This document shows, one piece after another, positions 36,802 to 38,493 of a stretch of 64,000 nt of DNA; position 1 is the stretch's first letter; each line of letters starts with the position of its first letter. This DNA comes from Escherichia phage vB_EcoM_11B_SA_NWU, in sequence record OR062527. One strand, 5' to 3'. The notes under the pieces were generated by a model, which made no database searches, was not told the DNA's origin, and was given only the letters and a program-made list of their open reading frames with translations. The position numbers and the translations under genes were made by a program.

Positions 36802-36877
36802 TGGTCGAGGCAGTAGGGATCGAACCTACGACCCAGGACTTAGAAGGTCCTTGCTCTTCCTTCTGAGCTATGCCCCG
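36802..36877 (-). tRNA. tRNA-Arg (anticodon TCT)
   Basis: Hand-folded cloverleaf; anticodon loop CTTCTAA; T-loop GGTTCGATCC; CCA encoded. Confidence 0.8.
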
Positions 36878-36880
36878 TAA

Positions 36881-37531
36881 TTAAAATTTCATTTTTCGAC
36901 CTTTAAACCATCCTTCTGGAATTGGGTCAGTTTTCTTAATACGTTTAGAAACTTTTTCATCTAATGAATGAATCCACATGGTTCCAAACTGAGAATTGTA
37001 TTTTCCAGAAGAATTAATCTTGGCTGAATCAGATATTTTCTTTTTCGTTTCTTTGTTATGTAGTTTACCTAAAAATCCAAAAGTTGGTTTTCTTATTCCA
37101 TTTTCCCATTGAATTTTCATAGATTCAGAAACTTTTTGCGATACCTTCGAATAGTCTCTTCTTAAGTTAGATTCTCTTACTCCAGATGAACAAATTGATG
37201 CAAAATTTGGACTATTACAAATATGATCCCAACCGCCTTCGCCACCAATCTTAAGATTATAAACGTTGCCTTTTAAAAATTCTTCTGTTACAATTTCAAG
37301 CTCTTTTGCGTACATTTCTTTAGCAGAAGAAAATTCATACAAAATTTCTTTTGTGAAATTATTTATTCCATACTTAGCAATTGCTCTTTTTATTCTTTTA
37401 CCAGAACCCATATAACCATCATTTATATTAGATGTTTTATGAGCTCCAACATAAACAGTTCCATTGATTAAATTAGTTATTTTATAAATCAGATAATGCA
37501 TATCTCCTCCATAGTTGAGATTATTATACAT
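36881..37531 (-). CDS. segB: GIY-YIG homing endonuclease (SegB-like)
   Basis: 216 aa; N-terminal YLIYKITNLINGTVYVGAHKT; located inside the tRNA cluster. Confidence 0.75.
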   Translation of the reverse strand: MYNNLNYGGDMHYLIYKITNLINGTVYVGAHKTSNINDGYMGSGKRIKRAIAKYGINNFTKEILYEFSSAKEMYAKELEIVTEEFLKGNVYNLKIGGEGGWDHICNSPNFASICSSGVRESNLRRDYSKVSQKVSESMKIQWENGIRKPTFGFLGKLHNKETKKKISDSAKINSSGKYNSQFGTMWIHSLDEKVSKRIKKTDPIPEGWFKGRKMKF

Positions 37532-37558
37532 TATTCCATTCCAATTGTAAACAAAAAA

Positions 37559-37631
37559 GGTGACCGATGGGAGTTGAACCCATGACTACGAGAATCACAA
37601 TCTCGAGTTCTACCAACTGAACTACGGCCAC
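37559..37631 (-). tRNA. tRNA-His (anticodon GTG)
   Basis: Hand-folded; anticodon loop TTGTGAT; acceptor resembles E. coli tRNA-His but no encoded G-1 or CCA. Confidence 0.6.
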
Positions 37632-37745
37632 ATTAATACCTACTCCAACAATCAAGATGTCTTCACACGAAATTAAGAGAAGAGTGATCAGTTCAACCCC
37701 TATAATCGCGTCAAGTAGATATTAATGTGACAGTTGTCACAAATT

Positions 37746-37820
37746 TGGCGGACGTGATAGGATTCGAACCTATAACCAATCGCTTAACAGGCGATCGCTC
37801 TGCCATTGAGCTACACATCC
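37746..37820 (-). tRNA. tRNA-Asn (anticodon GTT)
   Basis: Hand-folded; anticodon loop CTGTTAA; CCA encoded. Confidence 0.7.
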
Positions 37821-37824
37821 AAAT

Positions 37825-37911
37825 TGGTGGGGAGTGATGGAGTCGAACCACCCGAGTCGTAATGACAATGAATTTACAGTCCACACCGCTACCTCTACGG
37901 GATAACTCCCC
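37825..37911 (-). tRNA. tRNA-Tyr (anticodon GTA), long variable arm
   Basis: Hand-folded; anticodon loop CTGTAAA; 15-nt variable arm; CCA encoded. Confidence 0.65.
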
Positions 37912-37920
37912 AAATTAATT

Positions 37921-37995
37921 TGGTGGCCCTGGGTGGAATTGAACCACCATCTGGCGATTATGAGTCGCTTGCTTGAACCTTCCAGCTACAGGGCC
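37921..37995 (-). tRNA. tRNA with CAT anticodon (Met or lysidine-modified Ile)
   Basis: Hand-folded; anticodon loop CTCATAA; CCA encoded. Confidence 0.65.
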
Positions 37996-37996
37996 T

Positions 37997-38072
37997 TGGT
38001 GCTGATTGACGGAATCGAACCGCCGACATCCTCATTACAAGTGAGGTGCTCTACCTACTGAGCTAAATCAGC
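37997..38072 (-). tRNA. tRNA-Thr (anticodon TGT)
   Basis: Hand-folded; anticodon loop CTTGTAA; CCA encoded. Confidence 0.75.
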
Positions 38073-38077
38073 AAAAC

Positions 38078-38167
38078 TGGCGGAGGCGATAGGATTCGAA
38101 CCTATGAGTCGCCGGAGCGACTGCCGGTTTTCAAGACCGGTGCATTCAACCACTCTGCCACGCCTCC
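38078..38167 (-). tRNA. tRNA-Ser (anticodon TGA), long variable arm
   Basis: Hand-folded; anticodon loop CTTGAAA; CCA encoded. Confidence 0.75.
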
Positions 38168-38169
38168 AG

Positions 38170-38243
38170 TCTCCATACAAGGATTTGAACCTTGGACCTC
38201 CTGATCCCAAATCAGGCGCTCTACCAAACTGAGCTACACGGAG
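38170..38243 (-). tRNA. tRNA-Pro (anticodon TGG)
   Basis: Hand-folded; anticodon loop TTTGGGA; CCA not encoded. Confidence 0.7.
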
Positions 38244-38253
38244 TAAATTAAAT

Positions 38254-38327
38254 TGGAGCGGATAATGAGAATCGAACTCACATCATCAGATTGGAAGTCT
38301 GAGGTAATGCCATTATACGATATCCGC
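38254..38327 (-). tRNA. tRNA-Gly (anticodon TCC)
   Basis: Hand-folded; anticodon loop CTTCCAA; CCA encoded. Confidence 0.75.
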
Positions 38328-38332
38328 AAATT

Positions 38333-38419
38333 TGGTGCGAGAAGTGGGACTCGAACCCACAAGGAAATCATTCCGCAGCATTTTAAGTGCTGTGCCTTTA
38401 CCAATTTGACCATTCTCGC
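38333..38419 (-). tRNA. tRNA-Leu (anticodon TAA), long variable arm
   Basis: Hand-folded; anticodon loop CTTAAAA; CCA encoded. Confidence 0.75.
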
Positions 38420-38420
38420 G

Positions 38421-38493
38421 CTGGGAATAAAGGATTCGAACCTTTGCATCCTGGAATCAAAATCCAGTGCCTTACCAACTTGGCTAATTCCCA
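38421..38493 (-). tRNA. tRNA-Gln (anticodon TTG)
   Basis: Hand-folded; anticodon loop TTTTGAT; U1-A72 acceptor pair. Confidence 0.7.

Follow-up and report, generated by a model that had tools for sequence, protein, structure and literature searches.

An eleven-tRNA operon of a T4-like coliphage with a recombinant SegB-family endonuclease gene and a candidate structured RNA

It is known that the tRNA gene regions of T4-like phages differ from one another. In a 2008 study of the homing endonuclease SegB, genes for tRNA-Met(CAU), tRNA-Tyr, tRNA-Asn and a different tRNA-Arg were mapped in T2L, RB1 and RB3, and the differences between the tRNA regions of T4, T2 and T6 were accounted for by SegB-driven exchange (PMC2330249). 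According to the same study, SegB cleaves at the 3' ends of tRNA genes and has the recognition core GGTTCRANTCC, and the T2 tRNA-Asn gene contains the preferred cleavage site of the T4 enzyme (PMC2330249). Two small non-tRNA RNAs of the T4 tRNA operon, RNAC and RNAD, are bounded by tRNA processing sites, their roles being still unknown (PMC3014915). Here we consider the tRNA operon in a 64,000-nucleotide stretch of Escherichia phage vB_EcoM_11B_SA_NWU (OR062527), below referred to as the window. As a whole, the locus is very probably a T4-like coliphage tRNA operon in the common eleven-tRNA form, with processing, function and an origin by cassette exchange as outlined below. Two of its parts are uncatalogued: a recombinant allele of an endonuclease gene at the junction between the tRNA-His and tRNA-Arg genes, and a structured RNA candidate between tRNA-Asn and tRNA-His.

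In the window, ARAGORN predicted a total of 11 tRNA genes, which are situated between 36802 and 38493 and are without exception on the minus strand. In the order of transcription, these are Gln(ttg), Leu(taa), Gly(tcc), Pro(tgg), Ser(tga), Thr(tgt), a gene with the cat anticodon, Tyr(gta), Asn(gtt) and His(gtg), followed by a 651-bp open reading frame (ORF) and then by Arg(tct). The initial annotation had listed the same set, and all 11 genes were recovered with the same anticodons, including the His, Asn and Tyr cloverleafs, on whose recovery it had made its reading depend. The Rfam model RF00005 (gathering score 29) matched 10 of the 11 genes at 59-75 bits (E 1e-11 to 6e-16); for the long-arm tRNA-Tyr, Rfam gave only a clan match of 30 bits, below threshold, although ARAGORN does call tRNA-Tyr. 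The genes and the RNA candidate, all on the minus strand, are listed below, with the source of each call and identities to the T4, T2 or T6 counterparts.

38420-38493, minus strand: tRNA-Gln(UUG); ARAGORN, Rfam 68.7 bits; CCA not encoded; about 1 nt before tRNA-Leu
38333-38419, minus strand: tRNA-Leu(UAA); ARAGORN, Rfam; CCA encoded; 87/87 identical to T4
38254-38327, minus strand: tRNA-Gly(UCC); ARAGORN, Rfam; CCA encoded; 73/74 identical to T4
38169-38243, minus strand: tRNA-Pro(UGG); ARAGORN, Rfam; CCA not encoded; adjoins tRNA-Ser; identical to the T4 gene
38078-38167, minus strand: tRNA-Ser(UGA); ARAGORN, Rfam; CCA encoded, unlike in T4; 85/87 identical to T4
37997-38072, minus strand: tRNA-Thr(UGU); ARAGORN, Rfam; CCA encoded; 76/76 identical to T4
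37921-37995, minus strand: tRNA with the CAU anticodon; ARAGORN; T2 allele, 75/75; 47/72 identical to T4 tRNA-Ile
37825-37911, minus strand: tRNA-Tyr(GUA) with a long variable arm; ARAGORN; 86/87 identical to T2, 85/87 to T6
37746-37820, minus strand: tRNA-Asn(GUU); ARAGORN, Rfam; 75/75 identical to T2
37632-37729, minus strand: candidate structured RNA of about 98 nt, predicted three-way junction with a closing helix of 13-15 bp, ending 1 nt before tRNA-His
37559-37631, minus strand: tRNA-His(GUG); ARAGORN, Rfam; C73 present, G-1 and CCA not encoded; Karamvirus-type A in the T-loop
36802-36877, minus strand: tRNA-Arg(UCU); ARAGORN, Rfam; CCA encoded; T2-type allele, 75/76; 51/69 identical to T4

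Spacers had been described as short as 1 nt, and the one at 37996 is indeed present between the Thr and CAT genes; the Pro-Ser and Gln-Leu gaps are equally tight.

The repertoire had initially been contrasted with the eight tRNA genes of T4 (NC_000866), and T4 has exactly the set named, that is, Gln, Leu, Gly, Pro, Ser, Thr, Ile and Arg. The Tyr, Asn and His genes are indeed absent from T4, but the cluster is not T4's eight plus these three, as only six genes, from Gln to Thr, are T4 orthologs, being the same or nearly the same. The CAT and Arg tRNAs have the anticodons of their T4 counterparts, but by sequence their genes are distinct from these and are T2 alleles; with 47/72 identical positions, the CAT gene cannot be T4's tRNA-Ile. 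T4 resembles the window in having a seg gene directly upstream of tRNA-Arg, but lacks, in addition to the three tRNAs, the structured element and a 116-amino-acid ORF (ORF116) that follows tRNA-Arg in the window.

The CAU tRNA is most likely tRNA-Ile2, which would read AUA after lysidine formation. Its best match in E. coli, identical in 62/75 positions, is a CAT-anticodon gene annotated as tRNA-Ile, from which it does not differ in the acceptor stem or in the anticodon arm of 19 nt. When 79 ORFs of the window were compared with annotated genes of E. coli K-12, AUA showed the strongest over-use in the phage, with highly expressed host genes as the reference (12.8 vs 0.4 per thousand). The arms of the tRNA also fit C4-G69 and C5-G68, which we take to be tRNA-Ile2 determinants. 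As G1-C72 is paired, the tRNA would not be an initiator, and, given the match to the E. coli CAT-anticodon tRNA-Ile, a methionine tRNA of either kind, elongator or initiator, is unlikely. An identical gene is labelled tRNA-Met in the T2 record and was termed so in the 2008 paper (PMC2330249).

The sequence of the window places it in the genus Tequatrovirus. In many Tequatrovirus genomes, for example that of FelixPlatter (Bas40, MZ501065), the cluster region is 97-98% identical to that of the window, and the annotation gives the same set of 11 tRNAs, similarly ordered; in this phage and in Yersinia phage ZN18, which has the same tRNAs, the flanks are 97-98% identical as well, and the element between Asn and His, ORF116, RNAD and RNAC are likewise present. 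The block comprising Tyr, Asn, the spacer and His was found in 189 deposited phage records (matched over at least 80% of its length), in most of which it is annotated. T2 (T2L, MH751506) has the same CAT and Asn genes, as well as the Tyr and Arg alleles and ORF116 after Arg, but it lacks Thr (the ORF trna.1 being in that place), His and the structured element. Tyr and Asn without His are also observed in RB6, and the tRNA loci of T6 and BP32 show further alternative arrangements. The eleven-tRNA repertoire is already known, being a common Tequatrovirus configuration at a known mosaic hotspot, and by itself adds nothing new. An origin of tRNA-Asn from a Karamvirus Ile(GAT) gene, aligned to it by BLAST, was ruled out, the identity (51/74) being at the ordinary level of similarity between tRNAs.

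The operon may hence be described as four sections: the Gln-Leu-Gly-Pro-Ser-Thr half, common to T4; a T2-type module of the CAU tRNA (most likely Ile2), Tyr, Asn, the different tRNA-Arg(UCU) and ORF116; a block formed by the structured RNA and tRNA-His, set between Asn and Arg; and homologs of RNAD and RNAC with a terminator. If the biology of T4 applies, transcription of the minus strand would yield polycistronic precursors. These would be cut by RNase P and 3' nucleases of the host, whose CCA-adding enzyme would then complete Gln, Pro and His.

The 114-nt interval between Asn and His is predicted to fold at -32.7 kcal/mol, compared to -20.6 kcal/mol for shuffled sequences (z = -4.4). Homologs of the structured element are present in 355 phage records, and in the records listed no feature is annotated over it. 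They come from at least four Straboviridae genera and from the Vequintavirinae phage W70, and the element is always situated inside a tRNA array, with variable neighbours: Asn/His, Gln/His, Asn/Arg (in REP2) or Gly/Gln (in W70). With a covariance model of the element, the window yielded a single match (117 bits), and T4, T2 and T6 yielded none.

Alternatively, the interval might be a mere spacer or a leader used in processing, conserved and apparently covarying simply because its copies share a recent ancestor. In favour of this, the distinct sequence types number only about 8-9, and a shuffling control ignores relatedness. For the alignment of eight distinct element sequences, RNAalifold yielded a three-way junction with 30 pairs, where 94.9% of cells hold standard pairs, compared to 89.3% in shuffled alignments and 36-51% in registers slid along the alignment. 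Compensatory changes were observed in 9 pairs; shuffled alignments had 3.3 ± 1.3 such pairs, none of 500 reaching 9, and all six slid-register controls, which do preserve relatedness, had 0-2. The 9-bp core of the helix, with four covarying pairs, is 100% paired across the Straboviridae genera and the Vequintavirinae phage. Besides, several G•U pairs are invariant, and thus the fold is specific to the transcribed strand, while the sequence of the element is retained as the flanking tRNAs change. Given these data, a spacer conserved simply by descent seems rather unlikely.

The most likely reading of the element is that of a candidate small stable RNA released by tRNA-processing enzymes, in analogy to RNAC and RNAD. 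Similarly to these, it would be a small non-tRNA RNA in a tRNA operon, but it is located between tRNAs, whereas RNAC and RNAD are at the operon end. As its diversity is limited to the 8-9 sequence types, it remains a candidate. Somewhat tentatively, we suggest that it could represent an undescribed phage-specific RNA family, released as a discrete molecule, that may be coupled to tRNA-His maturation or act in counter-defence. The element nearly always abuts the 5' end of the tRNA-His lineage that lacks the near-universal G-1. In the Tequatrovirus REP2 (OQ174501; 131-408 of the REP2 segment analysed), it is located between Asn and Arg, and there is no tRNA-His; thus, the two are separable.

When 4 kb were searched with Rfam 15 (4227 models) at E<=1, the element had no match, and a search of 141 nt at E<=10 gave nothing above chance level (7-13 bits); there is hence no support for assigning it to an Rfam family, be it YrlA or a ribozyme. 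The core pattern had zero matches in 185,579 bacterial and archaeal species genomes, and no further sequence types were found when IMG/VR, metagenomes and the W70 branch were searched for diverged members. A relationship with RNAC or RNAD was rejected, as the element folds differently and no similarity to their sequences could be detected, and no promoter-like match was found inside the element on the minus strand, where a promoter had been considered. We therefore regard it as an uncatalogued RNA candidate inside phage tRNA arrays, supported by covariation. In W70 (OP778610; 220-550 of the W70 segment analysed), the Gly, Gln and Pro tRNA genes flanking the element are not annotated in the record. 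Just 5' of the element, at 37726-37741 on the minus strand, there is a perfect palindrome, TGTGACA-AC-TGTCACA, seen in Tequatrovirus copies and not conserved in other genera.

The tRNAs of the operon would supply codons that are far more common in the phage than in the host, that is, codons ending with A and, in bulk, those of Tyr and Asn. The A-ending codons of the eight classic tRNAs are 2.5-36 times more common than in highly expressed host genes (AUA 36-fold, GGA 12-fold, AGA 11-fold, UUA and UCA 9-fold each). Tyr codons occur at 46.6 per thousand in the phage vs 20-25 in the host (about twofold), and Asn codons, at 60.5 vs 33-44 (1.4-1.8-fold). His codons are not elevated (18.0 vs 20-23). 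Codon usage, a comparison of which in late genes with host tRNA abundance had been proposed by the initial annotation, thus explains the tRNAs for A-ending codons, Tyr and Asn, ten of the eleven in total, but not His.

A second role, suggested by analogy with published results for T6 and T5, would be to make up for host tRNAs lost to tRNA-cleaving defences; this would hold for Tyr and probably also for Asn and Thr. The expression and function of T6 tRNA-Tyr have been demonstrated experimentally, and it relieves Septu immunity (PMC13096335). One could go further and suppose that the Tyr, Asn and His additions serve mainly counter-defence, replacing or titrating host tRNAs cut by nucleases, rather than codon supply. 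Indeed, the T6 tRNA-Tyr that rescues infection from Septu is identical to that of the window in 85/87 positions, and colicin E5 targets all of Tyr, His and Asn, with Asp as its fourth target (PMC1635277). The AriB nuclease of the PARIS system cleaves tRNA-Lys, Thr(UGU) and Asn(GUU) and, to a minor extent, His (PMC12409363). At the AriB cleavage site, the phage tRNA-Asn reads U36-A-A-G-C|G and that of E. coli U-A-A-U-C|C; for tRNA-Thr, the respective sequences are U-A-A-U-G|A and U-A-A-U-C|A. These differences may confer resistance to AriB, and the absence of excess demand for His codons also agrees with a defence role. However, in their anticodon loops, the Tyr, Asn and His tRNAs of the phage appear identical to what we take to be the host sequences, and hence an E5-type nuclease would cut the phage tRNAs as well. 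In addition, the demand for Tyr and Asn is already explained by codon supply. Septu, too, cleaves the T6 tRNA-Tyr, and the rescue is an effect of dosage (PMC13096335). Counter-defence as the main role of the three additions is possible but, on balance, unlikely; codon supply and counter-defence likely both apply to Tyr and Asn.

The tRNA-His gene had been noted for lacking an encoded G-1 and CCA, and this is the case: there is T at position -1, and C73 is followed by TTTTTT. In the E. coli gene, position -1 is G, whereas all 23 related phage tRNA-His genes collected from Tequatrovirus, Karamvirus, Jiaodavirus, Gelderlandvirus and metagenome contigs have T. All endonuclease-free copies encode C73-CCA, endonuclease-free relatives reading GGTCACC-CCA, and CCA is missing in the window because the endonuclease cassette is inserted after C73. 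The absence of CCA is not unusual as such, since four of the eight T4 tRNA genes (Gln, Pro, Ser and Ile) do not encode it either.

Together, G-1 and C73 are the main identity elements of bacterial tRNA-His, recognized by the histidyl-tRNA synthetase, HisRS (PMC9976931). From this set, the phage gene keeps C73 and the GUG anticodon, while G-1 opposite C73 is not encoded. tRNA-His might thus be a passenger or decoy rather than a working histidine tRNA, poorly charged by E. coli HisRS for want of G-1 and spread by the adjoining target of the homing endonuclease. T at -1 in 23/23 phage genes from five genera, a histidine codon usage that is not raised and the entry of the endonuclease cassette at the tRNA-His 3' end in two genera would all agree with this. 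On the other hand, tRNA-His is identical between genera in 72/73 positions, and in diverged copies the T stem and the anticodon stem are kept via compensatory changes, hence the gene is under structural selection; together with the retained C73 and anticodon, this pattern indicates selection on a working tRNA. We therefore consider a pure passenger improbable, although the spread of tRNA-His may be partly due to its position beside the homing site. Given this conserved phage lineage without G-1, one may ask whether E. coli HisRS charges such a tRNA at all and, if so, by what route.

The endonuclease cassette between tRNA-His and tRNA-Arg comprises the following features.

36881-37558, minus strand: putative homing-endonuclease cassette, 678 bp, standing in place of the CCAA that follows His C73 in endonuclease-free relatives
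36881-37501, minus strand: coding sequence of a SegB-family GIY-YIG endonuclease, 206 amino acids when counted from the ATG behind the Shine-Dalgarno sequence GGAGGAG; the start of the longest ORF is at 37531
37523-37551, minus strand: predicted sigma-70-type promoter, TTTACA-17-TATAAT, 11/12 matches; also present in the Karamvirus cassette
36971-36979, minus strand: recombination junction ATGTGGATT, a shared 9-mer; within the coding sequence, Karamvirus-like upstream of it and T4/T6-like downstream

The ORF had been identified with T4 segB. It is a gene of the SegB family of GIY-YIG endonucleases, but it cannot be T4 segB itself, being 51% identical and chimeric. The match to T4 SegB extends over the full length (E 2e-68) and retains Y17 and G19 (...VYVG), the residues found to be essential in T6 SegB from catalytic mutants (PMC13096335); PHROG 314 (homing endonuclease) matches the protein at E 1.5e-43. 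The identity to the Karamvirus Seg protein of fGh-Ecl04 (USL86122) is higher, 86% for amino acids and 87% for nucleotides. When identity was calculated in bins, a sharp breakpoint appeared: the segment from 37570 to approximately 36995 was Karamvirus-like (85-95%), and that from approximately 36990 to 36899, T4/T6-like (97-100%), so that the T4-type part of the protein is limited to the last ~30 residues.

FelixPlatter and PG7 lack the cassette, whereas the window and fGh-Ecl04 have it, always after His C73 and beside GGTTCAACTCC, the part of the His T-arm that matches the published SegB core motif. In FelixPlatter the junction reads ...GGTCACC-CCA-ATTA-CGGGG(Arg), that is, tRNA-His ends with C73-CCA, followed by ATTA and tRNA-Arg; cassette-free Karamvirus relatives read GGTCACC-CCAATTC-(Ser). 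The fGh-Ecl04 cassette has the same promoter and the same insertion point as that of the window, but its downstream neighbour is tRNA-Ser rather than tRNA-Arg, and it has another C-terminal tail, the tail in the window being T4-type. T4 and T6 SegB are alike in being GIY-YIG enzymes, free-standing in the tRNA cluster directly upstream of tRNA-Arg, with identical last ~30 residues and Arg junction. However, the T4-type segB removes Asn (in BP32 and T6), whereas in the window the endonuclease gene follows tRNA-His, and the tRNA-Asn gene, the best-cut target of T4 SegB, is retained (PMC2330249).

The T-loop of tRNA-His has the Karamvirus-type A in the window and G in 6/6 endonuclease-free copies of the Tequatrovirus type, FelixPlatter-type genomes included; this looks like a possible short co-conversion tract. 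The differences of the operon from T4 would arise by cassette exchange, driven by homing endonucleases that target tRNA genes: a recombinant SegB-family gene with its own promoter would have been inserted exactly at the 3' end of tRNA-His, deleting the encoded CCA and leaving a donor-type base in the T-loop. In two phage genera, SegB-type exchange would have reached a second target, the tRNA-His 3' end, and the locus would be a clean natural example of it, in which the insertion junctions, the crossover at microhomology and the probable co-conversion base can all be seen.

The allele was not found in any Tequatrovirus of the phage collection, where the best full-length matches (87%) are from Karamvirus, and IMG/VR contains no close copy, the best full-length match there being 48%. 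The same protein is encoded, without any difference, on contigs of two public read sets, SRR16564126 and SRR16564130, whose independent assemblies reproduce 35347-38224 at 100% identity. Although the absence of the gene from collected Tequatrovirus genomes might suggest an assembly chimera, this has a negligible probability and was rejected, as both junctions of the window are reproduced at 100% identity in the two assemblies; moreover, these junctions coincide with a codon-level microhomology and with the end of a tRNA. The insertion is real and rare.

Several points weigh against the reading of the operon given at the outset. The endonuclease scores under the Pfam gathering thresholds, at 19.0 vs 22.6 for PF01541 and 23.5 vs 25 for PF19835. 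The evidence for co-conversion consists of one base only. The translational role of tRNA-His is uncertain, given that there is neither excess codon demand nor G-1. Finally, all functional steps for the phage of the window are transferred from T4, T2, T6 and T5.

Two tRNAs show further peculiarities. tRNA-Gln is identical to that of T4 in 64/73 positions, and the nine differences are all within the anticodon arm, where the stem is swapped for another, fully paired one; positions 32 and 38 of the loop are U/U, compared to C/C in T4. tRNA-Arg(UCU) has G3•U70, as well as G2-C71, G4-C69 and A73, that is, most of the bacterial alanine identity set, whereas the T2 gene has A3-U70. The G3 allele is also present in FelixPlatter, ZN18, SHFML-26, BP32 and four metagenome contigs. 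An IMG/VR scan for both alleles yielded only five loci, insufficient for estimating frequencies. Thus, a tRNA-Arg allele with alanine identity elements is widespread, and mischarging with alanine would be possible, as far as the sequence allows one to judge.

The operon continues downstream of tRNA-Arg with the following features.

36433-36783, minus strand: ORF116, phrog_3355, between tRNA-Arg and the RNAD homolog, as mapped by BLAST
36317-36436, minus strand: homolog of T4 RNAD (species 2 RNA), by alignment to T4
36172-36310, minus strand: homolog of T4 RNAC (species 1 RNA), by alignment to T4
36094-36121, minus strand: predicted intrinsic terminator closing the operon, a 10-bp stem with seven G-C pairs followed by a T run

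ORF116 occupies the same place in T2 and is not at that position in T4, where RNAD comes 1 nt after tRNA-Arg. In the window, the stop codon of ORF116 overlaps the first bases of the RNAD homolog (36433-36436, minus strand). Over 36089-36433, where RNAD, RNAC and the terminator are situated, the identity to T4 amounts to 93.6%, and the full alignment has 336/364 identical positions.

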